In this document: one piece after another, positions 3,486 through 61,517 of the stretch
Position numbering within the stretch: position 1 is the stretch's first letter
How the letters are laid out: the number at the start of each line of letters is the position of its first letter
Origin: an uncultured Pseudomonadales bacterium
GTDB taxonomy: Bacteria; Patescibacteriota; Microgenomatia; UBA1400; PJMF01
Assembly (NCBI GenBank): GCA_964393205.1
Contig: CAYMSV010000002.1
Span: forward strand, 160,843-224,842
Direction of reading: 5' to 3'
Length of the DNA stretch: 64,000 bases
The notes under the pieces: model-generated
The model's database searches: none
The model's input: the letters and a program-made list of their open reading frames with translations, nothing else
Told to the model about the DNA's origin: nothing
Program-made: the position numbers and the translations under genes

Positions 3486-4484
3486 TTATTTACTTCTTTC
3501 TTTTTCCTCTATCCATCTATAAGTTTTTTTCATACCCTCGTGCAAATCAACTTCTGGCTCCCAATTAAGATATTTTTTTATCAAGCTGTTATCGCTACTT
3601 CTACCACGAACCCCTTGTGGAGCATCTAAATTATACTGACGATTCAATTTAATTTCAGCAATTTTTTCTATTATTGACAGCAATTCATTGATTGTTACCA
3701 ATTCACTTCTACCTAAATTAATTGGCTCATCAATTTCACTATGCATGATTAAATCAATACCTTTAACACAATCATCAATATACATAAAAGTTCTTGTCTG
3801 TTGACCGTCACCCCAAATTTCGATATTTTTCTTTTTATTAATTTTAGCTTCTATTACTTTCCTGCATAAAGCAGCCGGTGCTTTTTCTCGACCACCTTTG
3901 TACTCACCAAAAGGTCCATAAACATTGTGAAAACGAGCCACTCTTGTTACTAAATTAAAATCTTCACTAAAATGACGACACATTCGTTCGGAAAAAAGCT
4001 TTTCCCAACCATATCCATCTTCTGGCATGGCCGGATAAGCATCGCTCTCCTTCAATTCAATAACATTACTGTTGGATTGTTTATTCAAAGGATAAATACA
4101 AGCTGAAGAAGAGTAGAAAAATCTTTTTACTCCAAATTTAGCTGCTGCCATCAACATGTGGGTATTAATTAAAACATTAAGCATACACAAGCCCTTATTG
4201 TTTTCAATAAAACCCATACCACCCATGTCAGCAGCCAAATTATAAACTTCGTCGATACCCTTGCTGACAATTTGGCAATTTTTGAAATCCTTCAGATCGG
4301 AAACTACATTTTCTGCATTTCTATTAACTTGTTGCCACTCAGCCAGAGGTTTAATATCTACCGCTCTAATTTCTGTATTTTGTTGAAGATCAAAATAATT
4401 GACTAAATGACCACCAATAAAACCACCAGCCCCAGTAATTAAAATTTTTGTTTTTTTAGCATTGTTGTTTTTATTATGTTTCAT
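3486..4484 (-). CDS. NAD-dependent sugar-nucleotide epimerase, GDP-mannose 3,5-epimerase (GME)-like
   Basis: N-terminal Rossmann 'ILITGAGGFIGGHL'. Motifs 'AADMGGMGFI', 'RFFYSSSACIYP', 'LKESDAYPA', 'RFHNVYGPFG', 'KGGREKAPAA', 'WGDGQQTRTF' and 'GVRGRSSDNSLIK' match those I remember from plant GME along almost the whole length. Confidence 0.7.
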   Translation of the reverse strand: MKHNKNNNAKKTKILITGAGGFIGGHLVNYFDLQQNTEIRAVDIKPLAEWQQVNRNAENVVSDLKDFKNCQIVSKGIDEVYNLAADMGGMGFIENNKGLCMLNVLINTHMLMAAAKFGVKRFFYSSSACIYPLNKQSNSNVIELKESDAYPAMPEDGYGWEKLFSERMCRHFSEDFNLVTRVARFHNVYGPFGEYKGGREKAPAALCRKVIEAKINKKKNIEIWGDGQQTRTFMYIDDCVKGIDLIMHSEIDEPINLGRSELVTINELLSIIEKIAEIKLNRQYNLDAPQGVRGRSSDNSLIKKYLNWEPEVDLHEGMKKTYRWIEEKERSK

Positions 4485-4492
4485 TTTATCTT

Positions 4493-5611
4493 TTAATCGA
4501 TAACAGACATTATCTCATTCAATTTATTTTCCCAAGAATTTACTAAAGCTATTTTCCTTTGCTTTTGCTGTTGTTTTTTTGACCAATCCTGATTTAGTAG
4601 CTGAAAAATCAGCTTTTGCCAATCATCTCGTGAATAAGCAATTTTAACAAAATTAGGAAATTTTTGTAGCTCCTTAATATTACTGCTGATCACCGGCTTA
4701 CCAGCATAAAAATATTCGAATAATTTCATTGGATAACAATAGCGATTAAATACTAAAGATGCATCATAAGGAATAATTGCAAGATCAAAGGTCTCAATAA
4801 AAGACAAGATTTTATTTCTCTCTTGCTTATCATAATGGAAAAAATTTGGATGAGTTAAAAGCTGATTAAATTTTTCTTTTAAAAGTAATAAATCAGAGTC
4901 TTGACTAACGTTGGGCTCATAGTGCAAAGGACCAATAAAAACAAAGCTTAAATTTGGGTTATTTTTAAGCAAATCATCTAACAATAAAAAATCTAAACGC
5001 ATACTTATCTGTCCCACAAAACCTATAATTGGCTTGTTATCAGGTACCTTAACACTCTTTTTGGCTCTTTTTTTGAAAGTTTGATAATCGAACCCTTGTT
5101 TTACCAAGTGAATTTCTTTATCAGTTTCATTTTCATATAATTTTTTTAAACTTTTCGATATAGAAAAAATATAATCAGCGCTGTCCAGTATTTTTTTCTT
5201 TTGTGTTTGTAGTTTTTGATAAGCATCAGAATCAAAAGAAAAGTGAAAATCAACAATATCAAAAACAATTGAAAAAGCAAAAAATCTCAAACTTAATAAA
5301 TCTGCCAATTGAGGAAAAAAGATCCATAGATAACGTCTCTTTAAAGGAAATTTCAAAGAAAACCAAAGTCCTAATAAGAATTTGTATAAATGCTGATTTA
5401 TTTTTTTAATAAGAGTAAATCTACTAAATGGCAAACAATTAAAAGGCTTTATCTGCCTTATGTTTTTATTTTTCTTAAACTCTTGCTGATTAAAATTAAT
5501 AATATAAACTTGATTGTTTTTAGATAAACCCAGTGCTGTTTGCCAAACAAAATCACAAACTTGTTGCCCTCCAGATAAATCAGGAATTAAGATTAAAGCA
5601 TTCTTTAGCAT
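4493..5611 (-). CDS. glycosyltransferase family 1 (GT4-like)
   Basis: C-terminal 'FVGQISMRLD...FIGP' and 'KLFEYFYAGKPVISS', the E-x7-E type GT1 motif. Confidence 0.7.
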   Translation of the reverse strand: MLKNALILIPDLSGGQQVCDFVWQTALGLSKNNQVYIINFNQQEFKKNKNIRQIKPFNCLPFSRFTLIKKINQHLYKFLLGLWFSLKFPLKRRYLWIFFPQLADLLSLRFFAFSIVFDIVDFHFSFDSDAYQKLQTQKKKILDSADYIFSISKSLKKLYENETDKEIHLVKQGFDYQTFKKRAKKSVKVPDNKPIIGFVGQISMRLDFLLLDDLLKNNPNLSFVFIGPLHYEPNVSQDSDLLLLKEKFNQLLTHPNFFHYDKQERNKILSFIETFDLAIIPYDASLVFNRYCYPMKLFEYFYAGKPVISSNIKELQKFPNFVKIAYSRDDWQKLIFQLLNQDWSKKQQQKQRKIALVNSWENKLNEIMSVID

Positions 5612-5640
5612 TGGTTTATTATATTATAATAACAATTCTA

Positions 5641-6540
5641 ATGAAAAATTCAGTCTTACCAGTCAGCATTGCTATCATAACCAAAAATAGACCAATCAAG
5701 TTAAAGAGATGTTTATTAAGCTTAAAAGAACAGAGTTTTAAATTGTTCACCATCATTATTGTGGATAATGATGATAAGCAATCTGCACTTCCAATTACCC
5801 AAGACAAATTGTTCAACAAGTTAAAAATTGAATACCATCATTTACCCAAAAAAACTGTACCTGCTTGCCGTAATCAAGCAATGAAGTTTAACCAAAATCC
5901 TTATTTGGCTTTTATTGATGATGATTGTGTAGCAGACAAAAACTGGCTTAAAAAAGCTCTAGAAACAGTCTCTGATACAAAATCAAAATATGTCTTAGGA
6001 GTTACTAAATTATTAAATACCCAAAATATTTTTGCTATTGCTCAACACGCTAGAGATAATTTTTGGAAAGAATACAATGGCCAATTATTAGATACTAAAA
6101 ATTTATTGCTTGACGCTACTTTTTTCAAAAAAAAGAAATTAAAGTTTGATGAAAAATGTCAAAGCTTATATTATGATTCAGCCGATTTTGATTTAGATTT
6201 TCAAGTTAAAAAAGAAGAGATCAAAGGAGCTTACACATCAGAAATGTTGGTTTATCATGAAGAAACTGATTCTTTTGCTAAATTTAAATGCCGAGCTTTT
6301 CACCGTGGGAAATTAGCCAAATATTTAAACGGTAAGTGGAAGCTCAACGATAACTTGGTTAATCTAAAAGACCAATTGTTCTTATTATTTTTTTTACGTG
6401 TCATTAAAAATTTTGTTAAAGATTATCAAAAATATAAAGAACACATGGAATGTAATGCTTTTTTAAAAAAAATTTTTGCTACTTGCTTGATTAAAAACTT
6501 TGAAAGACACTACTTACTAGGTTATGTGGCAAAAAATTAA
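5641..6540 (+). CDS. glycosyltransferase family 2
   Basis: 'VSIAIITKNRP...IIIVDNDD' and a 'FIDDDC' DXD motif. The ORF track starts at 5533, but the M at 5641 (MKNSV) avoids overlap with the convergent GT1 and sits just before the GT2 fold. Confidence 0.75.
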   Translation: MKNSVLPVSIAIITKNRPIKLKRCLLSLKEQSFKLFTIIIVDNDDKQSALPITQDKLFNKLKIEYHHLPKKTVPACRNQAMKFNQNPYLAFIDDDCVADKNWLKKALETVSDTKSKYVLGVTKLLNTQNIFAIAQHARDNFWKEYNGQLLDTKNLLLDATFFKKKKLKFDEKCQSLYYDSADFDLDFQVKKEEIKGAYTSEMLVYHEETDSFAKFKCRAFHRGKLAKYLNGKWKLNDNLVNLKDQLFLLFFLRVIKNFVKDYQKYKEHMECNAFLKKIFATCLIKNFERHYLLGYVAKN

Positions 6541-8005
6541 AAAATCAACTGATTTACTTGCGGTTTTATCCTGCTTGCTATTTTTATTAGTCACCAGCCT
6601 GTTGCCTAATGTAAAAAGTTTTTTTGCCCTATCTTTTGTATTTCTATTTTTTTTAACTTGGCGTTATTCTTTTAGTAAAGCAATCATTTATGTCGCCCCT
6701 ATATTAACTACTCTTTGGATAGGTCAATCCCATTCGACTCTAGTTGTCCCTGCAAAAGCCATAGTTGTTCATCAGTATTTTGAAGGTCGACACTTATCTT
6801 GGACTTTTACTCCTTATTTAATGATTGCCACTGTCGCTCTACTTCTAATTCCATTTTGGCAAAGAATATACAAAAACAAAGTGAAATTGTTAATTCATGA
6901 GAAACTAATAATTATTGTAGCTGCTAGTGGGTTTTTATCTGCTATTTATGGGGCCGTATTATTAGAAATTAGTCTTTTTTTTGTTTTTAATAGTTTTTTA
7001 TCAGTGATTTGGACCTATTATTTGATCTTATTAAAAAATAATTTAAATAAAAAAGAGTTTTATAGATTGCTCACTACTTTTTTATTTATATGGCTCATTT
7101 TAGTCAACTACGAAAGCATTCTTGTTTTAGCACAAGTATTATTTAAACGACCAATTGGCTTAATCGTAGAAACTACAAAAACAGCTCCGATTTTTGGCCT
7201 AGGAGCAGACGAAGGCTCAGGCGGATTTCGTCCTTTCGGTCTAGCTTACCACCCCAATGGCTTAGCTAACAAACATCTCATTTACATATTCTTATTGGCT
7301 TTTATTAAATTTTATTTAAAAAAGCTAACAGCTCCCTTTAAAGACTTTGTTAATTGGACAATCTTAGGTTCAATAATTGTTATATTACTTACTTTAAGTA
7401 GGGCCGCTTATTTGGCTTTAATTATCAGTGTTCTGTTTATCTATTTTAGACACTCAAAATTTTTTAATAATCAACTCTCAACTTGGAAAAAAAAGCTAAA
7501 CAAGATTAGCAGGGTTCATAAGTTTTTGTTTTTATTAATTGCACTTTTTCTATTTAGTAAATTTAGCAGTCGCCTACTTAATTCAATTTACAGTTTTAGT
7601 GGTTGGGGAGGTTTTAGCACCAGATTAATACAATATCAAGAAGCTTGGGAAATATTTAAAAAAAGTCCATTTTTAGGTATTGGTGATCAAATGTTTGTTC
7701 CTATTGCTTACCAGCTTTTCCCAAAAGGAGTTGTCACCTACTTTCCAGAAAATGTTCATCAAGGATTCTTATTATTTATGATAGAAAGGGGCATTTTTGG
7801 TTTATTAGTATATTTATTGTTTTTTTATTATTTTTTAAAACATCTAATAAAATTAGATACTATTAGCAGCATCAATAAAACAATGTTATACTCTGGAATA
7901 ATAGGAAGTTTTATAATAATGTTTTTTCATCCAGAAAGAAATTTATTGAATACTTTATTCCTAATTGGAATCTCACTAACACACTATGAAAAAAAAACTA
8001 TTTAA
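6524..8005 (+). CDS. O-antigen ligase/polymerase-like (Wzy_C) membrane protein
   Basis: About 12 TM helices. A periplasmic loop 'GFRPFGLAYHPNGLANKH' is followed by 'LTLSRAAYLALII', the Wzy_C-type SR(A/G) motif. Confidence 0.5.
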   Translation: MWQKIKKSTDLLAVLSCLLFLLVTSLLPNVKSFFALSFVFLFFLTWRYSFSKAIIYVAPILTTLWIGQSHSTLVVPAKAIVVHQYFEGRHLSWTFTPYLMIATVALLLIPFWQRIYKNKVKLLIHEKLIIIVAASGFLSAIYGAVLLEISLFFVFNSFLSVIWTYYLILLKNNLNKKEFYRLLTTFLFIWLILVNYESILVLAQVLFKRPIGLIVETTKTAPIFGLGADEGSGGFRPFGLAYHPNGLANKHLIYIFLLAFIKFYLKKLTAPFKDFVNWTILGSIIVILLTLSRAAYLALIISVLFIYFRHSKFFNNQLSTWKKKLNKISRVHKFLFLLIALFLFSKFSSRLLNSIYSFSGWGGFSTRLIQYQEAWEIFKKSPFLGIGDQMFVPIAYQLFPKGVVTYFPENVHQGFLLFMIERGIFGLLVYLLFFYYFLKHLIKLDTISSINKTMLYSGIIGSFIIMFFHPERNLLNTLFLIGISLTHYEKKTI

Positions 8006-8877: not shown

Positions 8878-9741
8878 ATGAAGAAATTACCAAAAATTTC
8901 TATTGTTACTCCATCTTACAATCAAGGAAAATTTATTGAAGAAACGATTCAATCAGTTTTAAATCAAGACTATCCTAATTTCGAATACCTAATAATAGAC
9001 GGAGGTTCGAGTGATCAAAGTTTGGAAATTATCAAAAAATATCAAAAGAAAATTGATTATTTTGAAAGCAAAAAAGACCGAGGACAATCCCATGCCATTA
9101 ATAAAGGTTTTGCAAAAACTGATGGTGAGATTATGGCTTGGATTAATAGCGACGATATCATTAGACCAGGCACTCTTAAGCTAGTGGCTAGTATTTTTGC
9201 AAAATTTCCAGAAATAGATTGGTTGACAAGTTTACCATCTACCATAAACGAAACTGGACATCTCATATATTTAGCTAAAAAGCCTTTATATATAAGATTT
9301 CTAATTAAAAAAGGATTATATACCAGAAAATTATTAGGTTTCATTATGCAAGAAGGAACCTTTTGGCGAAGATCACTATGGGAAAAAACTGGCAGTAAAT
9401 TAGATGAGGTGCCTTATTCAATGGACATGAAGCTTTGGCAGAAATTTGCACAACATAGTCAACTCTATTGCGTTGATGCCTGTTTAGCTTCATATCGACT
9501 TAATCCTAATCGAAAAAACAATGATCAGCACCGAAAATATTACGCCGAAATAAATGATAAAACACCAATTGTCTTAGCAACAATAATCAAAGTTATATGG
9601 AGACAGATAGCAAAACTTATTCACTTATGTAAATTAAGTCCAAGCATATACTTCAATCAAGAAAAAAACACTTGGTTTTTTAGAAAAAACTTATTTAATG
9701 TAAAAGGCTTCAAGCTCTTGAGCAATAGTGCGCCAAGATAG
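8878..9741 (+). CDS. glycosyltransferase family 2
   Basis: 'ISIVTPSYNQGKFIEETIQSVLNQDYPNFEYLIIDGGSSD' and 'AWINSDD'. Confidence 0.75.
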   Translation: MKKLPKISIVTPSYNQGKFIEETIQSVLNQDYPNFEYLIIDGGSSDQSLEIIKKYQKKIDYFESKKDRGQSHAINKGFAKTDGEIMAWINSDDIIRPGTLKLVASIFAKFPEIDWLTSLPSTINETGHLIYLAKKPLYIRFLIKKGLYTRKLLGFIMQEGTFWRRSLWEKTGSKLDEVPYSMDMKLWQKFAQHSQLYCVDACLASYRLNPNRKNNDQHRKYYAEINDKTPIVLATIIKVIWRQIAKLIHLCKLSPSIYFNQEKNTWFFRKNLFNVKGFKLLSNSAPR

Positions 9742-10857
9742 TTTATCAGCTAATGACCTAGCATTTTTGCCCAGTTGTTTTAATTTATTTGTTTGTTTAA
9801 GACTTTTATCTATCGCGGAAGCAAACTTTTTGGGTGTCTCTGGTGCTAAAATGCCAACTTTTTCCTGAGTCAACAATTTCTTAACTTCGCCAGTTGGATT
9901 AGCAATTGTAGGTCTACCAACTGCCAAATAATCTCCTAGTTTATTGGGAAATTTACCCCTATTGATTTCTTTATCTGCAAAGGGTAAAAGCATTAAATCA
10001 CCAGTCGACAAATATAAACTTAACAAATCTCTATCAACAACTCCTTGATATATGACCTTATTATTTAAATTTTTATGAACCTTTATTTGCCTCTCGAAAG
10101 CTGGTATTGGAGGACCCAATAACATTAATAGCACGTCTTTCCTTAAACAATTTAATTCTATAAAGGTTTTAGCTAATAATTCTTCATCATAAGTACCAAC
10201 ATATAAATAAACCAATATTTTCTTTGTTTGACTCAAACCCAGTTTGCGTCTTGCAACGAATTTTGACATGGTTTTGATACCCTTAATATTAGCCCCAACA
10301 CCTAGAAAAAATACATTATCTTTGTTTTTTCTAATTAATTTAGCTTTTTTAACTAAATCATCACTAATTGCTGTAACAGCAAAAGCTAAACGAATAAAAA
10401 GACGCTCAGCGTAATGATCAAAATTAGCTGTTAAAAAACTAAAAGGTCCATAGCGACGATCAGCTATACCTCCTCTTCCCCAAAGGTCGGCCCAGTCCAA
10501 AAACCACTTTGTTTTTGGAAAAAAGCAAGATTTAATCAAAGCAGGAATAGTCGCTGCTGGCCGGTGATTGAAACTTTGAATAACATCACATTTTGAAAAG
10601 AAAATAGCCACACTTCTAAAACAAATATCAAAAATATCATTTCCTCCTTTTCGAAAACGATAAGGCATTAAACCTATTGATTCTACGACCTTCACACCCT
10701 TTTCATAACTTACTTTTGGTAAAAAACTAATTTTTTTGGCACTAGTCCACAAAGTTACTTGGTGCCCTAGCTCAGTTAATCCCTGCGCTAAAGATAGGGA
10801 GCGCAAATAACTTCCACCAATTTCTTTAGCCTCATAGGTTAAAAAAACTATTTTCAT
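9691..10857 (-). CDS. glycosyltransferase family 1 (GT4-like)
   Basis: 'MKIVFLTYEAKEIGGSY' N-terminus (start at the internal M; the ORF track gives 10887). C-terminal 'KLGDYLAVGRPTIANPTGE'. Confidence 0.7.
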   Translation of the reverse strand: MKIVFLTYEAKEIGGSYLRSLSLAQGLTELGHQVTLWTSAKKISFLPKVSYEKGVKVVESIGLMPYRFRKGGNDIFDICFRSVAIFFSKCDVIQSFNHRPAATIPALIKSCFFPKTKWFLDWADLWGRGGIADRRYGPFSFLTANFDHYAERLFIRLAFAVTAISDDLVKKAKLIRKNKDNVFFLGVGANIKGIKTMSKFVARRKLGLSQTKKILVYLYVGTYDEELLAKTFIELNCLRKDVLLMLLGPPIPAFERQIKVHKNLNNKVIYQGVVDRDLLSLYLSTGDLMLLPFADKEINRGKFPNKLGDYLAVGRPTIANPTGEVKKLLTQEKVGILAPETPKKFASAIDKSLKQTNKLKQLGKNARSLADKLSWRTIAQELEAFYIK

Positions 10858-14177: not shown

Positions 14178-14837
14178 ATGTTACAGAAAAATAAAAAAGC
14201 TAAAATTTTTATTCACAGCAGTTTCTTTGGGCACTTCAAACTAATCATTGATCTCTTATTGACCATATTTATATTAATCCTGATATCACCTTTAATTATT
14301 ATTTCTTTTCCTTTTTTACTGTGGCAAATCGGCCAACCAATCATCTTTAAACAGAAAAGAACTGGTAAAGGCGCTCAAAATTTCGAGCTTTATAAGCTAC
14401 GCACTATGGTAAAAAATGCTGAACTACTTCGTTCTAAAAACCAAAAACATTTTGCTGAATTAAACTATGCTCCAGCTCCTATGTTTAAAATTAAAAATGA
14501 TCCACGTTTTTTAAAAATTGGCAAATTTCTATCCCATAGCGGCCTAGATGAATTGCCACAATTGATTAATATTTTAAAGGGTCAAATGTCTTTAGTGGGT
14601 CCAAGACCGCTACCAACTAATGAAGCTCAAACTTTAAAAAAAATTGATCCTGATTGGTATTTTTGGAGACATCAAGTAAAACCAGGCTTGTTTTCCCTAT
14701 GGGTATTAAATAACGAAAGACACAAAAACTTGGAGGCTTGGAGGGGGCTTGAAAAAAAAACACTTGCTTTAAATTTGAAACAACAATATTTCTTGATTTT
14801 TCAAATTATTTGGAGTCAATTGTTAAAAATGCTTTAA
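14178..14837 (+). CDS. polyprenyl-phosphate sugar phosphotransferase (PglC/WbaP C-terminal-domain-type 'bacterial sugar transferase')
   Basis: N-terminal re-entrant helix. 'PIIFKQKRTGKGAQNFELYKLRTM' and 'DELPQLINILKGQMSLVGPRP' are diagnostic. Confidence 0.75.
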   Translation: MLQKNKKAKIFIHSSFFGHFKLIIDLLLTIFILILISPLIIISFPFLLWQIGQPIIFKQKRTGKGAQNFELYKLRTMVKNAELLRSKNQKHFAELNYAPAPMFKIKNDPRFLKIGKFLSHSGLDELPQLINILKGQMSLVGPRPLPTNEAQTLKKIDPDWYFWRHQVKPGLFSLWVLNNERHKNLEAWRGLEKKTLALNLKQQYFLIFQIIWSQLLKML

Positions 14838-14960
14838 ATCCTTGCTTAAAAACAATCAATTAAATGTATCAAAACATAACAACAATGATTTTTCTACTTG
14901 CTAAACCTTACTTTTGTATATTAAGCTAAAAGCAACTATTTTTATTGTGTCAAACAATTT

Positions 14961-15992
14961 ATGTCTAATTTAAACAAATATTTGCCTAACAAATATCAAC
15001 AAAAATCCATTGACAATCAACTTAGTCAGCCTGAGGAAATTTTAACAAAATCTATTCCTTCTTCTGAGAATTTAAATCCAACTACTCAAATAAACTCAAC
15101 AAAAACTACTCAAACCACAAATAACAATAATAATTCTGTTAAAGTTTCCTCAAAAAACAAGACAAAACAATCTCCTAAAAAAAAGAAAGTAATTTTTTTA
15201 AGTATATTGTTATTTCTTTTACTAGCTGGAACCCTAACCTCTCTGTTTTTGATCAGAAGGGCCCAAGATATAAGACAGCAGGCTGCTTATCCAACTCCCA
15301 CTATCACTCCCAGACCTACTACGAGACCTACTACGGAACCAACTACAGAACCGACTACGGAACCTACAATCAGTCCCACTATAGGACCTACTGAAACTCC
15401 AATAATTGCTTGTGCTGACATTGGCTGTGCTGATGATAATGATTGTCAAGAAGGCTATGCTTGCATACAAGGCGCACCAGATGAAGGAGCAGCTATCACA
15501 GTTGGAATTTGTGGTCTAGCTTCATTGGCTGATGAGTGTCGCAACAATCGTGATTATGATTCTTGTTGTGTAGAACCAACTATCACTACCACTCCTTCTC
15601 CCACCTTAAGCTTAGAACCAACTACAAAACCAACTGACTCTCCAGGAGAGCCAACTGATTCCCCAGAAGAACCAACTGACTCTCCAGAAGAGCCAACTGA
15701 TTCCCCAGAAGAACCAACTCCAGTTGTAACCACAGTTATTACTACTGTTGGCTGTAATGAAAGCTGTAGTGAAAATGCTGATTGTGCCAATATTAGCCAT
15801 ATCTGTTATGAAGGATTTTGCCGTCTAGACGTTTATCCAACAGATGTTAATTGTCGTCTGCCAGATGGAAATACTATTATCGAACGAGCAGTAGAAATAC
15901 CAACCGAAACAGGATTTGCTGACTGGTTTAATTTCCTTAAAATTGGTTTAGGCGCATTAGGACTCGGCACCTTACTATTGCTTCTCTTTTAA
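14961..15992 (+). CDS. Cys-rich surface protein paralog A: N-terminal cytoplasmic low-complexity tail, TM, Pro/Thr linkers, two Cys modules, C-terminal hydrophobic tail
   Basis: A TM helix 'VIFLSILLFLLLAGTLTSLFLI' is followed by 'RRAQDIRQQA'. The linkers are PTTEPTTEPT/EPTDSPEE repeats. The Cys modules are 'CADIGCADDNDCQEGYACIQ...CRNNRDYDSCC' and 'GCNESCSENADC...CRLPDGN'. It ends '...GFADWFNFLKIGLGALGLGTLLLLLF*'. Confidence 0.6.
   Translation: MSNLNKYLPNKYQQKSIDNQLSQPEEILTKSIPSSENLNPTTQINSTKTTQTTNNNNNSVKVSSKNKTKQSPKKKKVIFLSILLFLLLAGTLTSLFLIRRAQDIRQQAAYPTPTITPRPTTRPTTEPTTEPTTEPTISPTIGPTETPIIACADIGCADDNDCQEGYACIQGAPDEGAAITVGICGLASLADECRNNRDYDSCCVEPTITTTPSPTLSLEPTTKPTDSPGEPTDSPEEPTDSPEEPTDSPEEPTPVVTTVITTVGCNESCSENADCANISHICYEGFCRLDVYPTDVNCRLPDGNTIIERAVEIPTETGFADWFNFLKIGLGALGLGTLLLLLF
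15631..15714 (+). repeat. in-frame tandem repeat, 21 nt x4 (encodes PTDSP(G/E)E)
   Basis: ccaactga(c/t)tc(t/c)cca(g/a)(g/a)aga(g/a) is repeated head-to-tail four times. Confidence 0.8.
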
Positions 15993-16082
15993 TCAGTTCT
16001 AAAAAATTACTCTTGCTAAACTTTTAAAAAATAGAGTATGCTTATTGAAGGTAGTGCCGTAATAGCGCAACTATAGCCTTTT

Positions 16083-17117
16083 ATGAGTGAAATTAATATT
16101 TCTTCTTCATCAGCTCGCAACCAAGCCATACCAAGCAAGCCTGAACAATCAGACTCTAATAATCTTTTTCTTAATAAGAATTCTAATTCTGACAAAAATT
16201 CTGGTTCTAAAAATTCACAAAGTAACTTTAGCAAAAATAAAAATAATATTTTAGCTATTGTTTTACTCTTCTTTCTATTAATCAGTAGCGCCGCTGGTTT
16301 GGTTCTAATGAAACAGCGTCAAGACACTAGACAGCAAGCTTATAGTTCTGGTTTTAGCTGTAATAGCTACCACTACGGAAGTTCTTGTCGTAATACTTCA
16401 GGTACCTGGGAAGGAAGATGTGTATTAATCAACTGTCCCAAAGGTATTTTAGTTCCCGGAAAATGTTCTGAATCCGATCCCAGTGCTTATTGGGAGTTTG
16501 GAAATTGTTCCACCCTATTAAATAAAGCTAGAAGCTCAAATTACCCTCAGTGTTGGCAAATTGATGCTGTTAATAATTCGAACACCTATTGCAATGTTGA
16601 TTCTAGCTGCCAACATTATGAAACTTCACTGAGAGAGTGTGGTAACACCCCTCAACCAACTAATACACCACGCCCTCCAACACCTACACCAACCATTGGT
16701 CCTAGCCCCACTCCCAATCCCACACCAACTACTGGTCCCACACCAACTACTGGTCCAACTCCTAGCCCAGCCCCAATGTGTCGAAAAATTGAAATTCTAG
16801 ATCAAAATAACAAAGTCTTAACAGGCGACGCAGACCAAGATCTCATTCCTGAAGTTAGCGTTGTTAGATTTAGATGTTTTGGTAAACTTGAATCTAGCGA
16901 AAATCTCGACAGCTTGATTGAACGTTTTGACTTTGCTGTCTTAGAACCAAGTGGAGAAGTAGTCTTTCTTGAAGAAAGGATGAGCGTCGCTAATACTTCT
17001 GAAGATTATTTAATCAAAGAAGGTGGGGATTTCATTGCCGAATGTCGTCTATGTACAGCTTTAGACACTTGTCAAGAATGGACTAATCCAGTAATTAAAG
17101 AAGCAAGTTTGGAATAA
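16083..17117 (+). CDS. Cys-rich secreted/anchored protein paralog B (N-terminal anchor, PT linker, no C-terminal tail)
   Basis: N-terminal N/S/K-rich tail, a TM helix 'ILAIVLLFFLLISSAAGLVLM' followed by 'KQRQDTRQQAY' (the same post-TM motif as the neighbours), a 12-Cys domain, and a linker 'PTPTPTIGPSPTPNPTPTTGPTPTTGPTPSPAP'. Confidence 0.55.
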   Translation: MSEINISSSSARNQAIPSKPEQSDSNNLFLNKNSNSDKNSGSKNSQSNFSKNKNNILAIVLLFFLLISSAAGLVLMKQRQDTRQQAYSSGFSCNSYHYGSSCRNTSGTWEGRCVLINCPKGILVPGKCSESDPSAYWEFGNCSTLLNKARSSNYPQCWQIDAVNNSNTYCNVDSSCQHYETSLRECGNTPQPTNTPRPPTPTPTIGPSPTPNPTPTTGPTPTTGPTPSPAPMCRKIEILDQNNKVLTGDADQDLIPEVSVVRFRCFGKLESSENLDSLIERFDFAVLEPSGEVVFLEERMSVANTSEDYLIKEGGDFIAECRLCTALDTCQEWTNPVIKEASLE

Positions 17118-17140
17118 AAATATAGAACTAAATTATAAAA

Positions 17141-18043
17141 ATGGCTAAAACTAATAATTATCAACCAGTTAAATATGCAAAAGCACCAAGTGCTAATAGT
17201 TTGCAGAACAAAAACAACAAAAATTCACTAAAAATATTGTATTTAGTTTTTGCTCTATTGCTTTTTATTGTGGGGTCAGCCAGCGTAGTTTTAATTAGCC
17301 GCAAACAAGAGTTAGAACCAGGACCAGTAGCCCCCAATGTTCCACAATCTAAACCAGAAGCATATATACCGGTCGAAGAATCCTGTGTTACAAGTTTTAA
17401 TGTGCCTTTAAATCTAGCTTGTTCAGATAGTGGCTGTGCTGATGATAATGATTGTCAAAAAGGCTATGTTTGCATACAAGGAGCACCAGATGAAGGAGCG
17501 GCGATCACTGTTGGAATTTGTGGTCTAGCTTCCTTAACTGATGAATGTCGCAACAATCGTGATTATGATTCTTGTTGTATAGAGCCTACCAGTACTCCCT
17601 CTCCAACACCAACAACTGAACCAACTGGAACTCCAGAGCCAACTAGTACTCCTGAACCCACTGGAACTCCAGAACCAACTAGTACTCCTTCTCCAACACC
17701 AACTCCTGAACCAACTGGAACTCTAGAGCCAACTGAAACCCCTAAATCTACTCCTACTGAAGAACCGACTCCTGTTTTAACCCAGGTAATTACTACTGTT
17801 GGTTGCAATGAAAGTTGTAAGGAAAATACTGACTGTAGCAATGTTAGTCATATTTGTTATGAGGGAGTGTGTCGCTTAGACGTTAATCCAAACGATGTTA
17901 ATTGTCGCCTACCTAATGGCAACAACATGATTGAACGACCGGCTGTTGTACCTACTGAGTCAGGTTTTGCGGATTGGTTTAATTATCTAAAAGCAGGACT
18001 CGGTATTCTAGGTTTTGGCGCGCTACTATTACTACTTTTGTAA
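17141..18043 (+). CDS. Cys-rich surface protein paralog C (close paralog of 14961..15992)
   Basis: It has the same Cys modules, about 90% identical at the nucleotide level over about 150 bp ('CADDNDCQKGYVCIQGAPDEGAAITVGICGLAS..CRNNRDYDSCC'). It has EPTGTPEPTSTP repeats and the same C-terminal tail 'GFADWFNYLKAGLGILGFGALLLLLL*'. Confidence 0.6.
   Translation: MAKTNNYQPVKYAKAPSANSLQNKNNKNSLKILYLVFALLLFIVGSASVVLISRKQELEPGPVAPNVPQSKPEAYIPVEESCVTSFNVPLNLACSDSGCADDNDCQKGYVCIQGAPDEGAAITVGICGLASLTDECRNNRDYDSCCIEPTSTPSPTPTTEPTGTPEPTSTPEPTGTPEPTSTPSPTPTPEPTGTLEPTETPKSTPTEEPTPVLTQVITTVGCNESCKENTDCSNVSHICYEGVCRLDVNPNDVNCRLPNGNNMIERPAVVPTESGFADWFNYLKAGLGILGFGALLLLLL
17618..17689 (+). repeat. in-frame tandem repeat, 36 nt x2 (EPTGTPEPTSTP) plus degenerate copies to about 17745
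   Basis: 'gaaccaactggaactccagagccaactagtactcct' is followed by a near-identical copy. Confidence 0.75.
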
Positions 18044-18064
18044 AGTTAGTTTTCCCTAGTTTTT

Positions 18065-18073
18065 TGTTATAAT
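18065..18073 (+). promoter_or_regulatory. extended -10 element TGTTATAAT upstream of the tRNA
   Basis: TGnTATAAT lies 11 nt before the tRNA 5' end. Confidence 0.3.
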
Positions 18074-18084
18074 GCATATCAAGC

Positions 18085-18161
18085 GCGTGTGTAGCTCAAT
18101 TGGTTAGAGCTCCAAGCTTATACCTTGGGGGTTCTAGGTTCAAGTCCTAGCACACGCACCA
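18085..18161 (+). tRNA. tRNA with anticodon UAU (tRNA-Ile(UAU) by standard decoding), encoded CCA
   Basis: Hand-folded cloverleaf. Acceptor GCGTGTG/CACACGC 7 bp. D-arm GCTC-AATTGGTTA-GAGC. Anticodon stem CCAAG/CTTGG with loop C-T-TAT-A-C. 5-nt variable loop. T-arm CTAGG-TTCAAGT-CCTAG. Discriminator A, then CCA. Confidence 0.75.
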
Positions 18162-18631
18162 TGATAAAACTTATTTTTAAAATAATAAAATTATTAATTT
18201 TTATTTTAATCTTATTAACTTTAAGTGTTTTTGCCTACCAAAAAGGTTGGCTTAAAAACCATCCTCTTCACGCCCAAATTGAAAATTTTCAATCAGGAGA
18301 AATTAAAAATTGGCAAGATTTTATTAGCTCTTTTCAAGATCAGGAAAAATTAAATTTACAGTTAAACGAATTGAGTAATGATGCTGGAAAACAAATTAAA
18401 ATCAGTGCACAGAAAGCCTTAGAAGCTGGAAAAGTAGCTCAAGAGTTTATGTCAGAGTCTGTTCAAACAGACGAATTCGAAGACAAAAAAATCGGTGAAA
18501 AGGCTTTCGAATATGGTCAATATATTTATTGCAAAGCAGTGGTAGATGATTGGCAAGAAAGACTTATTGAAGATAATTCAGAAAAAGAAGAAGATATTTT
18601 AGATCAAGACGAAATAAAAACTAACGAATAG
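18161..18631 (+). CDS. hypothetical N-terminally anchored acidic protein
   Basis: The ORF track starts at 18125 inside the tRNA. The start is more likely M at 18161 (MIKLIFKII...), with a TM helix then an acidic helical region. Confidence 0.35.
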   Translation: MIKLIFKIIKLLIFILILLTLSVFAYQKGWLKNHPLHAQIENFQSGEIKNWQDFISSFQDQEKLNLQLNELSNDAGKQIKISAQKALEAGKVAQEFMSESVQTDEFEDKKIGEKAFEYGQYIYCKAVVDDWQERLIEDNSEKEEDILDQDEIKTNE

Positions 18632-19421
18632 TGGTGCCAACACAATCTTGACCACTGAGCGCCCAAAACAAATTGTCTTTCATCATTCCAGAAATAATTA
18701 CTGATTCAATCCCTTTTTTTGCCAGATCCAGTGATTCCTCAATTTTTAAACCCATGCCGCCAGTTACATCAAAACCTCTGGTATGACGCAAATCTCTGCT
18801 AATTTTAGGCCAAGTACTAGCCGTAATTTCTGGTACAAGCTGACCTTGCTTGTCTAAAAAACCAGCTACCTCTGTTACATGAATGATTTTATTTACTTGC
18901 ACTTTTTTTTCTAAAAAATAATCGGCCAAAAAAGCTAAGATTTTTTCTGTTGACCAAATAGTACAACCTTGATCACTATCAACTAAAACATCACCACAGG
19001 TAACTGGTAACAAACCTTTTTGCAAATACTGATCGATGGCATCAGCACAAAAATTCAATAATTTTCTTTTTTTAGTAACAATCGTATTACTGGCATAAAA
19101 AGAGACTGCCGGTAATTCGTGTTTTAAAAACTCATGCACCACTAAACGATTAAGGGCAGCAGCACTATCTTGAACAATAGCCATACCTAAAAGACTCTCA
19201 TCGTTAATAAATCCAGCCATTGTTTTATATTTACTAGCTGGAACATGAGCAAAACTGCCCTGACCATGACCAACAATTAACAACTGATCTGGCTTCTCCT
19301 GCTTAGCACTTGCAATTTCACCAACTAAACGTTTTAGAACCGCTCCTCTCAGAGACATAGGAATTTCTTTATCAGTAATAATGGAACCACCCAATTTAAT
19401 CAAAGTAAGATTTTTTTTCAT
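18621..19421 (-). CDS. isopentenyl phosphate kinase (amino-acid-kinase fold)
   Basis: 'LIKLGGSIITDK', 'VGHGQGSFAH' (GGGxFGH-like) and 'DVTGGMGLKIE' match the IPK family of the alternative mevalonate pathway. Confidence 0.65.
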   Translation of the reverse strand: MKKNLTLIKLGGSIITDKEIPMSLRGAVLKRLVGEIASAKQEKPDQLLIVGHGQGSFAHVPASKYKTMAGFINDESLLGMAIVQDSAAALNRLVVHEFLKHELPAVSFYASNTIVTKKRKLLNFCADAIDQYLQKGLLPVTCGDVLVDSDQGCTIWSTEKILAFLADYFLEKKVQVNKIIHVTEVAGFLDKQGQLVPEITASTWPKISRDLRHTRGFDVTGGMGLKIEESLDLAKKGIESVIISGMMKDNLFWALSGQDCVGTTIR

Positions 19422-19430
19422 TTTAATTTT

Positions 19431-20327
19431 CTAATTAATTTCTACGTGTTGGGGTAATAAGCTAAGTAATTCTTCTTGGGGAATTTTGCCCTCTTCTGCT
19501 AAAAATAATAAAGCTGCTGGCAAAAAGTCTAAAACTGCTAAAGTCGCTTTACGAAACTCTTTTTGGTCAATGTTGGATAATTCTTGCGCAGAATAAAGTC
19601 GCCAACCCTCCCTCTCAATTTTTGCCAAATCTTGTTCATCAATTAAAATTGCCAAGACAAAGACAATAAAGTTATAAAGTGCCAACTCTTGATTAGAACC
19701 ATCAACTGGTCTAATTTGTTCAATCCTAAAAGATGACTTTGAAAAAAAATGCACCTTATCTTTTAAATCAGCCGATGATAAGCCCGGCACTTCTTCTTCA
19801 ATTTCGCGTAACATACTAAAAAACAGTGCATTAACAAAAGCTGGTGGTAACTCCTTAAAACTTAAAGATTCAAGTTCTTCGTTGTTGTCTAAAAAATCCA
19901 ATAATGCTTGAGTCTGATCACTTTCTACCTTACCAGTTACCGTATTAATGCCAGTTGGCCTGGTAAAAACATCTTGTCTGTTAAACAATGGTTTACTAGG
20001 AAGACCCTGGTTAATTTCAGTCTTATTCTCAGGATAAATAACTCTTTCTTTCTTTTTGCTTTCATCATCTGAATGATTGCTATCAACATCATCAAAAAAT
20101 AAAAGTTTTAAACCATTTTCTGTAGCTACAAAAGTTAAAGCTCCCACTCCCACAGCATCTGATCGAAAAACAATATTTTCTGTCATTGAAGAACTACAAT
20201 GAGTACAAACTGGCCGATTTGCTGGAAATATTTTTTCACCACACACTGGACAGACAGCTAATTTTAGCTCTCCCTCTCCATTACCATAACGAATTTTTTG
20301 CAAACGCCAATGTCTTGGAACCTCCAT
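19431..20327 (-). CDS. hypothetical protein with N-terminal C4 zinc ribbon (CPVC...CTHC), degenerate Nudix-like 'REIEEE' segment
   Basis: 'CPVCGEKIFPANRPVCTHC'. It lies between IPK and the polyprenyl synthase. Confidence 0.35.
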   Translation of the reverse strand: MEVPRHWRLQKIRYGNGEGELKLAVCPVCGEKIFPANRPVCTHCSSSMTENIVFRSDAVGVGALTFVATENGLKLLFFDDVDSNHSDDESKKKERVIYPENKTEINQGLPSKPLFNRQDVFTRPTGINTVTGKVESDQTQALLDFLDNNEELESLSFKELPPAFVNALFFSMLREIEEEVPGLSSADLKDKVHFFSKSSFRIEQIRPVDGSNQELALYNFIVFVLAILIDEQDLAKIEREGWRLYSAQELSNIDQKEFRKATLAVLDFLPAALLFLAEEGKIPQEELLSLLPQHVEIN

Positions 20328-20392
20328 AACAGTTTATTAGTCGTATTTTTTAAGAAAATCACGCAAAACTGCTTAATTAGTAATTTCATAGT

Positions 20393-21487
20393 ATGATACT
20401 TAACATGACTAAATCGATGTCCATTTTAAGCAAATATAGAACAAATATTAGTGAATATCTAAAAAAATTCTTAGATGAAGAAAAACAAGCACTTAAGAAG
20501 ATAAGTTTAGACGACGACGCCTTTGAAACTTTAAAAAATTTTGTGGTACGAGGAAAAATGGCAAGAGCCAATCTGTTCATTCTCACTTATGGAATCCTTG
20601 AGCCACAGAAAGAAAAAGAAATTTTTGAAAAAGTTTTATTACCCTTAGCAAGCACCCTCGAACTAATTCAGGCTGGTTTATTAATTCATGATGATATTAT
20701 CGATCAAGATCAGCAACGAAGAGGACAAGATTCTATTTGGCAATATTACTCAAAACAAAACCAAAGCTCAGATCAACATTATGGGGAAAGTCAGGCAATT
20801 TGCTTGGGTAATCTATGTTTTTTCTTAGCCGATCAACTAATTTTAGAAGCCGTTAATAATCTAGATTCACAATTAAATAAAAAACAACTGTTAGATGTCC
20901 AACAACTAATTAACCGAGAAATTAGCCAAGTAATCTTGGCTGAAATGCTTGATAGCCAGTTAGCCATGCAAGATAAATTACCCTCACTAGAGAAAATTTT
21001 AGAAATGAACATTTATAAAACTGCTCGCTATAGTTTTTCTCTACCACTAATGCTCGCTGGAAAACTAAGTAATAAGTCTGAAAATATTAATCTACTTAGT
21101 AAAATTGGAGAAAAAATAGGCCTTATCTTTCAGATTAGAGATGATTATCTGGGTATTTTTGGCGATAGTGAAAAAACTGGCAAACCAATCCTATCTGATG
21201 TAAAAGAAGGTAAAAAAACTATTTTTTATTATTATTTAGCTCAAAACAAATCTCTCACTGATCAAGAAAAACACTTATTAAATAGCTGTTTTGCCAAAAA
21301 AAACATCAAACAAGAGCAAATATTAGATATTCAAAATTTGTTTGAGCGCTATAGCCTTCAAACAGTTGACAGTTTACTAGACCAACTAAAACTTGAAACA
21401 CAAATAATGACAAATCAGCTAAAGAATAAAAAAATACAGAACCTGTTAATGAAAATTCTAAATTTTGCTTCTTGTCGTCAATGTTAA
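20393..21487 (+). CDS. trans-polyprenyl diphosphate synthase (FPP/GGPP synthase family)
   Basis: FARM 'LIHDDIIDQDQQRRG' and SARM 'QIRDDYLG'. Confidence 0.85.
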   Translation: MILNMTKSMSILSKYRTNISEYLKKFLDEEKQALKKISLDDDAFETLKNFVVRGKMARANLFILTYGILEPQKEKEIFEKVLLPLASTLELIQAGLLIHDDIIDQDQQRRGQDSIWQYYSKQNQSSDQHYGESQAICLGNLCFFLADQLILEAVNNLDSQLNKKQLLDVQQLINREISQVILAEMLDSQLAMQDKLPSLEKILEMNIYKTARYSFSLPLMLAGKLSNKSENINLLSKIGEKIGLIFQIRDDYLGIFGDSEKTGKPILSDVKEGKKTIFYYYLAQNKSLTDQEKHLLNSCFAKKNIKQEQILDIQNLFERYSLQTVDSLLDQLKLETQIMTNQLKNKKIQNLLMKILNFASCRQC

Positions 21488-24478: not shown

Positions 24479-26305
24479 TTAACCTTGACTGATATTTTTT
24501 AATTCCTGAAGAGTAGTTGCTTGTTGCCAATCTTTATCAACCCTGATTTTTATCAAACGAGGGAAACGCAAAGCTACGCCAGCAGTGTGACTCGGAGATT
24601 TAGAAATTTCATCAGCTGCAATTTCCAAAACTAAATTTGGCTCAATCCACACGTCGGCCACCAACTCTTTTTTGAAATCATATTTAGAATTAGCTTGATT
24701 TTTAGAACTCTTGTGTTCATCCGCTAATTTTTTAATTTCTTTAAATTGCTTATCTGTTAAACCTGTGCCAATTTTCGAAAGAGTTTTGATGTCGCCACTT
24801 TTTTGATCTAAAACCCCAACCAATAAAGCTCCAATGCCAAAACTTTGTCTCTTACCTCTACCTCGATAGTAGCCCATCATAATGCAGTCGACAGTATCAT
24901 TTAACTTACCTCGCGTACCCTCGACTTCCTTTATTTTTACCCAACGCCAACCCTTACGACCAGCAACATAGGCTGACTCTGGCTTTTTCATTACAGCCCC
25001 CTCCAAACCGAGCTTCAATTGCTCTTCATGGTAAGCACTTAAATCAGTCGGATCACTAATAATTTGACAATCGGTTACTTTAATCACTTTTGAATCTTTA
25101 ACAGCATCATTAAGCTTTTTTTTACGATCAAGTAACTGTTCATCAATTAATGTTTCACCATCAAGATACAGCAAGTCAAAAACATAAAAGCGAATTGGTA
25201 ACTCTTCTGCTTTAGTCTTAATTTCATATTTGCGTTTGCGAGAAATAGTTTCTTGAAAAGCAACAAACTTCCCAGAATCAGGATCAATACCAACAGCCTC
25301 ACTATCTAAAATAGCTGTTTCTCCCTGAAATTCTTCCAATAATTGGTCTAATTCAGGAAACATAGCTGACACTTCTTCTAAATTACGAGTATAAGCTTTA
25401 TATTGGCTACCATCAGCAAAACCAGCTTTGTTGAGATGAATTTGGATGCGTAAACCATCATATTTTGGCTCAGCTATCACTTCACCCATTTTGTCAATAA
25501 TTTCTTGCCCACTATTAAGTCGCTGACATAAGGCTGGCACAACTGGAATACCCAACTCCATCTGATAGTTTTTAGCTAATTCTTTAGCACTTAGATTTTC
25601 TTCAAACAAATAGAGTTGTGCTAACAATCCGAAATCAGCTTTTTTTTGAAAAGCCTCCTCCAATAAGGATGACTGGCTTTTACCCCCTGTTTTTACCCAA
25701 GACAGAGCGTCTAACATGGTCATTGTAGAAAAGCCCAAACGCATTTTACCTAAAACAATTCTTGCTATAAATTTAGCCGACACAGCACTAACTTGATCTA
25801 ATAAATCGGCCAATAAATTAATTTTTCTATCCTGAGAACCTTCTCCACCCTCATAAGCAATTTCTTCTAGCTGCTGATGAACTTCTATAATGCTGAGCCT
25901 AACTTCTTGATCAGAAGAATCTGTTAAATCTGTTAAATCAGCGACAACTTGATAGAACAATTCGCCCAAATCTCCTAGCTCTTTATATTTTTTATTTAAC
26001 TCTCCAACAACTACTTCTTGATTAACATCATCAAACAAACCTTGTTTTAAAAATGATTTGTTTTCAACCGAGGCTGAATGACGATTATAAAAATTAGCTA
26101 AAGAGCGAATTAACATCTTACTAGATAACTGAAATTCTAAAGACTCATAGTTAGCCACCAGACTTCCCTGCATTAAATAGCTGGCGGGTACTATCTCATC
26201 TTTATCTAATTCTTTAAATAATTTAGCCAATAATTTAGTCATCTCTAAACGAGAGTTAAGTTCTTCCAAATCAAGTAAATATTGAGTGAATTGATTAAAA
26301 AGCAT
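24479..26305 (-). CDS. ATP-dependent DNA ligase
   Basis: Motif I 'AEPKYDGLRIQIH' (KxDG), then a nucleotidyltransferase domain and an OB domain. Confidence 0.85.
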   Translation of the reverse strand: MLFNQFTQYLLDLEELNSRLEMTKLLAKLFKELDKDEIVPASYLMQGSLVANYESLEFQLSSKMLIRSLANFYNRHSASVENKSFLKQGLFDDVNQEVVVGELNKKYKELGDLGELFYQVVADLTDLTDSSDQEVRLSIIEVHQQLEEIAYEGGEGSQDRKINLLADLLDQVSAVSAKFIARIVLGKMRLGFSTMTMLDALSWVKTGGKSQSSLLEEAFQKKADFGLLAQLYLFEENLSAKELAKNYQMELGIPVVPALCQRLNSGQEIIDKMGEVIAEPKYDGLRIQIHLNKAGFADGSQYKAYTRNLEEVSAMFPELDQLLEEFQGETAILDSEAVGIDPDSGKFVAFQETISRKRKYEIKTKAEELPIRFYVFDLLYLDGETLIDEQLLDRKKKLNDAVKDSKVIKVTDCQIISDPTDLSAYHEEQLKLGLEGAVMKKPESAYVAGRKGWRWVKIKEVEGTRGKLNDTVDCIMMGYYRGRGKRQSFGIGALLVGVLDQKSGDIKTLSKIGTGLTDKQFKEIKKLADEHKSSKNQANSKYDFKKELVADVWIEPNLVLEIAADEISKSPSHTAGVALRFPRLIKIRVDKDWQQATTLQELKNISQG

Positions 26306-31659: not shown

Positions 31660-31688
31660 AAAAGAGCCAGGTATAATGAAAAATTGAA

Positions 31689-32126: not shown

Positions 32127-32149
32127 TATATAAATAAAATAATAAAATT

Positions 32150-32539: not shown

Positions 32540-32541
32540 CT

Positions 32542-32967: not shown

Positions 32968-32991
32968 AATTAACAAATTAAAAAAATAAAT

Positions 32992-33333: not shown

Positions 33334-33403
33334 ATTTTTTTGCTAAAGACTAATAAACTTGATATAATAAAAATTAGATAGAAAAATTTAAAAGGAGACT
33401 TTT

Positions 33404-33808: not shown

Positions 33809-33840
33809 TTTTAGATACTAAAAACTCTCTTTTCATTTGC

Positions 33841-61501: not shown

Positions 61502-61517
61502 AAAAATCCAAGTTTAA

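Follow-up and report, generated by a model that had tools for sequence, protein, structure and literature searches.

In a stretch of 64,000 nucleotides from an uncultured bacterium of the Microgenomatia (contig CAYMSV010000002.1, positions 160,843 to 224,842, assembly GCA_964393205.1; hereafter the window), three adjacent genes, here called A, B and C, encode paralogous, modular cysteine-rich proteins, and the A and C proteins end in a hydrophobic tail that is the subject of this analysis (Table 1). The G+C content of the window is low, about 0.29-0.39. All three proteins start with an N/S/K-rich region that is followed by one hydrophobic transmembrane (TM) helix; after this helix A continues with RRAQDIRQQAAY and B with KQRQDTRQQAYS, and C has PVAPNVPQSKPEA instead. 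This agrees with a preliminary description of the locus, made from the letters alone, which had reported three adjacent genes with such N-termini and the motif RQD(I/T)RQQA in two of the three: the open reading frames (ORFs) were found at the same positions and the motif is present in A and B only. Its statement that the Pro/Thr (PT) linkers of A and C are different was likewise confirmed by alignment, as these linkers are unrelated repeats. Searches of A, B, C and the small neighbouring protein D with Pfam and NCBIfam gave only low-complexity or PT-linker noise and no family, and a promoter and terminator scan of positions 14700-18800 gave results no better than shuffled sequence.

Table 1. 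Features of the A-B-C-D locus and its surroundings; positions are those of the window unless a related locus is named
Feature	Position	Strand	Remarks
Gene A (343 aa)	14961-15992	+	Type-1 leader, PT linker, Cys module 1, PT linker, terminal Cys module, IPTETG, 26-aa tail
A N-terminal cytoplasmic motif YLPNKYQQK	14979-15005	+	Recurs at orthologue N-termini
A leader TM helix (15189-15254) and post-TM motif RRAQDIRQQAAY	15189-15290	+	Type-1 leader
A Cys module 1, 8 Cys	15411-15569	+	Copy in C at 17420-17578, 90% nucleotide identity
A terminal Cys module GCNESCxENxDCxNxSHICYEGxCRLDVxPxDVNC, 6 Cys	15750-15854	+	
A IPTETG	15897-15914	+	Position homologous to LPXTG
A 26-residue tail GFADWFNFLKIGLGALGLGTLLLLLF	15912-15989	+	
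Gene B (344 aa)	16083-17117	+	Type-1 leader, large Cys-rich module, PT linker, C-terminal Cys domain; no tail
B leader TM, then KQRQDTRQQAYS (16311-16346)	16248-16310	+	
B C-terminal Cys domain	16776-17087	+	Predicted all-beta
Gene C (300 aa)	17141-18043	+	Type-2 leader, Cys module 1, PT linker, terminal Cys module, VPTESG, 26-aa tail
C N-terminal motif YQPVKYAKA	17159-17185	+	Counterpart of A YLPNKYQQK
C leader TM helix (17234-17296) and type-2 post-TM motif PVAPNVPQSKPEAYIPVEESCVTSFNV (17324-17404)	17234-17404	+	
C VPTESG	17948-17965	+	
C 26-residue tail GFADWFNYLKAGLGILGFGALLLLLL	17963-18040	+	
tRNA-Ile, anticodon TAT (UAU)	18085-18161	+	Between genes C and D
Gene D, small single-TM protein, C-terminal motif KAFEYGQYIYCKAVVDDW	18161-18631	+	Conserved cassette neighbour
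Two PMT_2 genes	446-3468		
HlyD/ABC/MacB-FtsX genes, locus L054	10328-13326		After tail-gene cassette
HlyD/ABC/MacB-FtsX genes, locus L032	14069-17166		After tail-gene cassette
HlyD/ABC/MacB-FtsX genes, locus L040	11589-14563		After tail-gene cassette
AA_kinase, ChsH2 zinc-ribbon protein, polyprenyl synthetase	18621-21487		AA_kinase isopentenyl-phosphate-kinase-like, 18621-19421 (-)
ATP-dependent DNA ligase	24479-26305		Archaeal/eukaryotic-type
Array of at least 5 paralogous small genes	31243-34266	+	PF18895 T4SS_pilin
dnaN	45210-46349		
dnaA	46718-48226		
Monoderm-type type IV secretion locus	48331-52658	-	TraG/VirB4-like P-loop ATPase 48331-50526; PrgI-family protein 51705-52658
Five large ORFs	53065-63917		1115, 748, 580, 294 and 799 aa; no Pfam match at E<=1e-4

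The tail sequences quoted in the preliminary description proved exact. No K or R follows the 'LK' in either of them, and the last 16 residues after the conserved K are all hydrophobic or glycine. Based on an exhaustive search with a profile of the tail alone against 1.84 billion cluster representatives (E<=1e-3), we found 144 matches, each of them a protein cluster at 50% identity. All matches except two spurious ones were located at the extreme C-terminus, and the proteins that carry them range from 30 to 1504 aa and contain different domains. A word-indexed homologue search returned a single match for the terminal Cys module and 7 short fragments for the tails. When one genome per species was scanned for the terminal module together with the tail, the combination was detected in 12 loci of metagenome-assembled genomes from the candidate phyla radiation (CPR), labelled Woesebacteria, Pacebacteria, Paceibacterota and, in one case, 'TM6'; Woesebacteria are placed by the NCBI taxonomy within the Microgenomates group of the Patescibacteria. 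A metagenome scan added 50 loci, resulting in 177 distinct tails. The tail is thus conserved far beyond A and C, and the concern that it might be limited to these two genes, as raised in the preliminary description, does not apply. Its proposal of a sorting or anchoring signal, and not an incidental second TM helix, is supported by the 144 clusters, the extreme C-terminal position, the varied cargo and the fixed length.

That length is exactly 26 residues from the conserved G to the stop codon in 170 of the 177 distinct tails. When positions were numbered from this G as 0, which is invariant (100%), we observed L at -4 (77%), P at -3 (81%), T/S at -1 (89%), P at +1 (80%), D at +3 (77%), W at +4 (93%), L at +8 (82%), K or Q at +9 (73% and 19%), G at +11 (99%), +16 (96%) and +18 (98%), and L at +21 to +25 (69-96%). 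The family consensus is QPxLPxxLP(Q/E)(T/S)-G-P(E/A)DWxN(W/Y)LKAGLxxLGxGAxLLLLL-stop, with a canonical LPx(T/S)G before the conserved G in about 70% of the members. Both A and C show the family pattern G-[PF]-x-[DEN]-W-x2-[WYF]-L-[KQ]-x-G-L-x2-L-G-x-G-x-LLLLL at their extreme C-terminus, over 26 residues each. None of 146 tails contains K or R within its last 12 residues, and the tails end in LLLLL(L/F). Among these 146 tails, LPx[TS]G was present in 103 and LPxAG in 4, the window-type PTx[ST]G was present in 12, and the rest were degenerate, for example QPVAG, PPVSG, EYVTG and LYQAG. The clade of the window has the consensus R.V.[VI]PT[EQV][ST]G[FP]A[DNE]W[FMI]N[FY].K.G[LF]G.[LF]G.G.LLLLL[LF]-stop, in which the P, the T/S and the G of the motif are invariant or nearly so.

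On the strength of these alignments and profile searches, the tail was shown to belong to a large Microgenomates family of C-terminal signals that is derived from the LPXTG sorting signal and mostly still contains it. A profile of the window-type tail (A3) retrieved the protein P0008, which ends in ...LPSTLPQTGPEDWLKYLQVGLGVLGIGALLLLFL, with 47 bits, and this protein carries the JGI name 'LPXTG-motif cell wall-anchored protein'. In the opposite direction, a hidden Markov model (HMM) for which only canonical LPXTG-bearing tails from other organisms were used (A5) scored 45.8 bits for C and 38.2 bits for A, and the highest score among the remaining window ORFs of 70 aa or more (123 in total) was 1.5 bits. 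The A5 alignment places VPtESG onto LP.qtG with a one-residue insertion. An origin of the tail by chance or from low complexity was considered and is ruled out by the A5 scores. Several members of the family also pass the curated cut-off of the LPXTG_anchor model TIGR01167 (15.9 bits), namely P0008 (22.2), P0037 (21.9), the L054 orthologue of A (17.2), P0021 (16.2) and P0069 (16.1). These canonical members cover positions 1 to 27-29 of the 34 positions of the model, so that the positions of the charged tail are missing. Bridging forms were found as well, as the window-type terminal Cys module stands before a canonical LPQTG in P0071 (14.8 bits with TIGR01167) and P0046, and the tails of the three-gene cassettes in L014 and L054 come with LPQTG and LPVAG. 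In addition, the cargo domains of canonical members (the isopeptide-fimbrial RrgB_K2N_iso_D2, DUF11, DUF7927 and AgI_II_C2) are typical for sortase substrates. The suggestion of a new class of signal, unrelated to LPXTG, is therefore not supported, as LPx[TS]G and LPxAG occur in the relatives at the position of PTE[ST]G in the window and canonical members reach the TIGR01167 cut-off. It had also been stated that the tail has no known motif; in this statement the (I/V)PTE(T/S)G directly before the tail, where relatives have LPXTG, was overlooked.

The classical LPXTG sorting signal was defined as including a positively charged C-terminal tail (Schneewind and Missiakas 2012, PMC3297441). The family described here resembles it in its C-terminal position, in the LPx(T/S)G of about 70% of its members and in the hydrophobic helix that follows. 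It differs in the uncharged end, the fixed 26 residues, the GP(E/A)DWxN(W/Y)LK box after the scissile site, the Gly-zipper-like helix that ends in LLLLL, and the long non-canonical leaders. Sortases tolerate or co-evolve with departures from LPXTG, as in the class B-E motifs NPQTN, LPNTA, LAXTG, (S/P)PXTG and QVPTG, and by analogy a sortase might also accept (V/I)PTE(S/T)G. In these variants, however, the charged tail is retained and the sortase gene is usually a neighbour of the substrate gene, whereas no adjacent sortase was seen here. Next to a cassette with charge-less tails, and in the same organism, locus L063 encodes a protein with fn3 and purple-acid-phosphatase-N domains (4391-5941, +) that ends in LPVSG, a hydrophobic helix and a charged end (...WVAQQVRENAND); its layout is more classical, and it has no TIGR01167 match.

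The leaders of the tail proteins fall into two types, and nearly all full-length tail proteins have one of them. Type 1 consists of a K-rich region and a TM helix with GxGxG followed by QD[ILV]RQQA (84 distinct leaders), and it is also found on the tail-less B proteins. In type 2 the TM helix is followed by [VT]AP[NT]AP[EQ]SxPxA...CxLxFxV, and [AT]P[NT]AP.S.P motifs were detected in 50 of 122 full-length tail proteins. The K-rich region and the helix come after an N-region of 30-130 aa and before QD[ILV]RQQA or PVAPNAPxSxPxA, and in these motifs there is no small residue at -3. A search with a profile of the type-1 leader (E<=1e-3) yielded 0 significant hits among 2236 candidates, a 44-column profile being too short to become significant against 5.8 billion sequences. 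At the extreme cytoplasmic N-terminus A, C and their relatives also share [FY]xPxKYxK, for which the type-2 leaders of relatives have ...EPQAxYxK, and this motif may be a targeting element. Specialised signal peptides of Gram-positive bacteria, such as YSIRK-G/S and KxYKxGKxW, occur on LPXTG-anchored and often glycosylated repeat proteins. The leaders found here are analogous in being extended at the N-terminus and in having conserved motifs (type 1, type 2 and [FY]xPxKYxK). Their motifs are different, those of types 1 and 2 are situated after and not before the TM helix, and no family model matched them.

The structure of C was predicted with AlphaFold2 from an alignment of 15 sequences. The mean predicted local distance difference test (pLDDT) score was 58, and moderate confidence was reached for the helices and both Cys modules only. 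The leader helix covers residues 28-58, the linkers are disordered, module 1 has a pLDDT of 63-77 and the terminal module, with 82-84, is the best-predicted part. The tail forms one continuous helix of residues 276-299 that begins right after the G. When the PDB was searched with this model by Foldseek, no match was below E = 1 and the top ones were small disulfide knots such as Dkk and MCoTI, and sequence searches of the PDB matched PT linkers only. The C-terminal domain of B was all-beta in a single-sequence AlphaFold2 prediction, at a pLDDT of 43, which is unusable confidence.

A comparison of A and C gave different degrees of identity along the two genes. The preliminary description had reported about 90% nucleotide identity for both of their shared Cys modules. 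This holds for module 1, with 92% (140/152) over the range used there and 87% over 15408-15604 versus 17417-17613. It does not hold for the terminal module plus tail, with 72% (172/240), and the tail alone is 66% identical. Among the tail codons 7 are identical, 16 differ synonymously and 8 non-synonymously, so that 16 of the 24 changes are synonymous, which indicates an old divergence under purifying selection and not a recent conversion or fresh copying. Module 1, on the other hand, looks like the product of a recent transfer between both genes, judged by its 90% nucleotide identity. Cys modules have also been exchanged between paralogues and orthologues: module 1 is missing from the L002 orthologue of A (9152-10258), an L003 orthologue (698-1741) has one extra module, and in L005-L007 a B-type N-terminal module is joined to the tail.

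A, B and C, with A and C bearing the tail, form together with the small membrane protein D a conserved cell-surface cassette of the Microgenomates (CPR). The order is the same in L014, which has canonical motifs, as gene 1 ends in LPQTG and the tail, gene 2 is of the B type without tail, and gene 3 is of the C type and ends in LPVAG and the tail. L054 is a second relative with canonical motifs and this three-gene cassette, and B-type orthologues lie between both tail genes in related cassettes. By clustering all ORFs of the window and the related loci we identified a conserved block of the tail genes, an adaptor (HlyD_D23), an ATPase (ABC_tran), a permease (MacB_PCD/FtsX) and D, with an isopentenyl-phosphate-kinase-like AA_kinase further on. 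The HlyD, ABC and MacB-FtsX genes directly follow the tail-gene cassette in approximately 23-26 loci with canonical LPXTG tails (examples in Table 1). The window clade lacks the adaptor, ABC and FtsX genes at the cassette locus, and gene C is followed there by the tRNA gene, at the place that the operon has in relatives with canonical tails, and then by D. That LPXTG proper and the MacB-type operon are both lost in the window clade probably goes back to one phylogenetic event, and this correlation was not used as evidence. Downstream of the tail genes, an ORF of the D family was found in 34 loci, of which the window is one. For D itself the ATG at 18161 is the likely start, as the start listed for it, a TTG at 18125, overlaps with the tRNA gene, and the C-terminal motif across the family is KA.EYG.Y.YC..VV..[WY]E with one invariant Cys. 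In L010, derived from CP011212.1, an ATPase of an ABC transporter is fused to a C-terminal Peptidase_S24-like domain with a ...SGSMEP... motif (5910-6980, -); the domain match of 21.4 bits is just under the cut-off of 23.3, and the gene adjoins an ABC-2 permease upstream of the cassette.

Two PMT_2 genes of the glycosyltransferase-C (GT-C) type are located 11.5 kb upstream of A, with unrelated genes between, and their scores of 28.7 and 31.4 are just above the cut-off of 26.1. A weak, sub-threshold PMT_2 match was also found directly upstream of the L054 cassette. GT-C protein O-mannosyltransferases of the PMT_2 family, such as the actinobacterial Pmt, act on Pro/Thr-rich secreted proteins. 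The presence of PMT_2 genes near PT-linker proteins is similar here; the distance of 11.5 kb and the near-threshold scores are different. Glycosylation of the PT linkers, which the preliminary description had suggested, is plausible.

Pfam searches of the window, which covered 59 ORFs out of the 62 that are listed with 100 aa or more, were used to look for processing enzymes, and no exosortase or rhomboid family was found. Membership of the PEP-CTERM, PGF-CTERM or GlyGly-CTERM classes was rejected, as no NCBIfam CTERM model matches A or C at E<=1, and the signature motifs PEP, PGF, GG and PEFG are absent from the tails. The sole PEFG-CTERM match among the relatives was sub-threshold and lay on a leader TM helix. 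The exosortase/PEP-CTERM, archaeosortase/PGF-CTERM, rhombosortase/GlyGly-CTERM and PEFG-CTERM systems resemble the tail family in the order of motif, helix and C-terminus, in their restriction to certain lineages and in their varied cargo, but in all of them the helix is followed by a basic cluster, and their motifs are different.

Taken together, we consider the tail of A and C to be a Microgenomates-specific, charge-less derivative of the sortase LPXTG sorting signal, with a probability of about 0.6. Such a signal would consist of a recognition motif (mostly LPx(T/S)G; (V/I)PT(E/Q)(S/T)G in the window clade), an interfacial box G-P/F-(E/A)-D-W-x-N-(W/Y/F)-L-K and a terminal Gly-zipper-like helix. 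The long K-rich leader with its TM helix would direct the protein to the Sec pathway and retain it in the membrane. The Cys modules would then fold outside by means of disulfides, with the PT linkers as spacers that are probably O-glycosylated. MdbA-like disulfide oxidoreductases are enriched in CPR (Meheust et al. 2019, PMC6744442), which fits the Cys modules. The C-terminal helix would place the motif at the outer face of the membrane, where a housekeeping sortase encoded elsewhere in the genome would cut after T/S and join the protein to the wall; the K-rich leader anchor may substitute for the charged tail as the determinant of retention and topology. In this scheme the sortase cleavage, the attachment to the wall, the glycosylation and what becomes of the leader are inferred, whereas the homology of the tail to LPXTG-type signals, its breadth, fixed length and lack of charge, the synteny of the cassette and the lack of an adjacent enzyme were shown directly by the searches described above. 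A sortase family was reported in more than half of the CPR genomes and as 'near ubiquitous in Microgenomates' (Meheust et al. 2019), and a closed Microgenomates genome with a sortase gene was reported as well (PMC7143001).

A number of observations weigh against this interpretation. The pentapeptide LPXTG itself is not present in the window copies of the signal. These read IPTETG in A and VPTESG in C, with a shift of the P or an insertion of one residue relative to LPXTG, and neither A nor C matches TIGR01167 even at E<=1. The positively charged tail of classical signals is present in no family member, and the conservation and the fixed length of the segment beyond the presumed cleavage site exceed what a discarded retention helix needs. 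As read from the sequence, the leaders look unlike ordinary cleavable Sec signal peptides, as they have long N-regions and Q or P at -3 before the conserved A. Furthermore, no sortase, exosortase, rhomboid or CPBP family was identified by Pfam in the 59 ORFs of the 64-kb window that were scanned. A search by the TLxTC pattern and by phmmer with Staphylococcus aureus SrtA, which for the window covered all ORFs, gave no sortase in 67 sequences of 807 kb in total (the window and 66 related loci), and this search is insensitive to divergent sortases. A dedicated processing enzyme, as considered in the preliminary description, was thus not found to be co-located in either search.

As the window clade has kept the P, T/S and G and has lost the register of LPXTG, we are less sure of cleavage by a sortase in this clade, and a permanent topology with two anchors must be taken seriously as an alternative. 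Either in this clade alone or throughout the family, the tail would then be a permanent second TM helix, with the leader N-in and the tail C-in, and the LPXTG-like pattern would be a relic. The Gly-rich faces of the leader (GxGxG) and the tail (GLxxLGxG) would pack on each other or on a partner such as D. The degenerate motifs of the window clade and other branches (such as QPVAG and LYQAG) are consistent with this, as are the extreme conservation of the helix in its glycines and length, the absence of a sortase nearby and the predicted helix, which is unbroken from just past the G; the missing charged tail would be sensible if the K-rich leader already sets the topology. However, the motif residues are near-invariant inside the window clade, LPx[TS]G is kept in approximately 70% of the family, which is hard to explain without a sortase-type reader, and the cargo domains are typical for wall-linked proteins. 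An uncleaved anchor is therefore somewhat unlikely in our view. The formal layout of the tail, with S/T-G, a short polar spacer and an uncharged hydrophobic run to the C-terminus, also recalls eukaryotic glycosylphosphatidylinositol (GPI) attachment signals, which have a small residue, a polar spacer and an uncharged hydrophobic C-terminal stretch. A GPI-like lipid remodelling signal is nevertheless extremely improbable, as the layout is explained by the homology to LPXTG and no transamidase-like gene was seen by the Pfam scans of the window.

Further machinery is conceivable, given the strong conservation of a peptide that is supposedly discarded and the MacB-type operon next to the cassette. 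In one such reading, the tail and the leaders would be read by a CPR-specific machinery distinct from a sortase, with HlyD, the ABC ATPase, MacB/FtsX or D acting as a Lol-like extractor, or with an unrecognised peptidase. The gene order of tail genes, HlyD_D23, ABC_tran, MacB_PCD plus FtsX and D in the loci described above points in this direction, as do the position of D beside the cassette in 34 loci, the window among them, the presence of one of two special leaders on nearly all full-length tail proteins, and a peptide after the G that is conserved like a ligand. On the other hand, the window clade keeps the tail although the adaptor, ABC and FtsX genes are absent from the locus, the synteny could reflect vertical inheritance inside one order, neither a Pfam family nor any catalytic feature was recognised in D, and LPXTG itself indicates a sortase, so that we regard such a pathway as very unlikely. 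A wider proposal, which we hold to be unlikely to a lesser degree, is that the tail and the two leaders mark a CPR-specific pathway of surface display that goes beyond ordinary sortase anchoring. A doubly anchored precursor would be formed, and its C-terminal peptide would be read by a distinct clade of sortases or by the MacB-type ABC/HlyD system with D. A, B and C would form an envelope complex that tethers the membrane, the wall and possibly a host, and the window clade would be a sortase-independent derivative.

Other genes of the window are listed in Table 1. In the relative L001, mevalonate-pathway genes are located at the place of the AA_kinase and polyprenyl synthetase region of the window. 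Further downstream lie the DNA ligase gene, the T4SS_pilin array and the type IV secretion locus, which adjoins dnaA and dnaN, and the five large ORFs are at the end.

CPR bacteria, or Patescibacteria, are thought to live attached to other cells, and little is known about how they display surface proteins. The tail family is uncurated, as no Pfam or NCBIfam model covers it apart from the borderline TIGR01167, and it is tied to two dedicated leaders and to a three-gene envelope cassette. It offers a sequence handle for listing the surface proteome of the Microgenomates, in which proteins like A and C are now 'hypothetical' and would be missed by the LPXTG models. For the biology of sortases it poses the question of how a substrate is retained and recognised without a charged tail, and why a supposedly discarded peptide is conserved.

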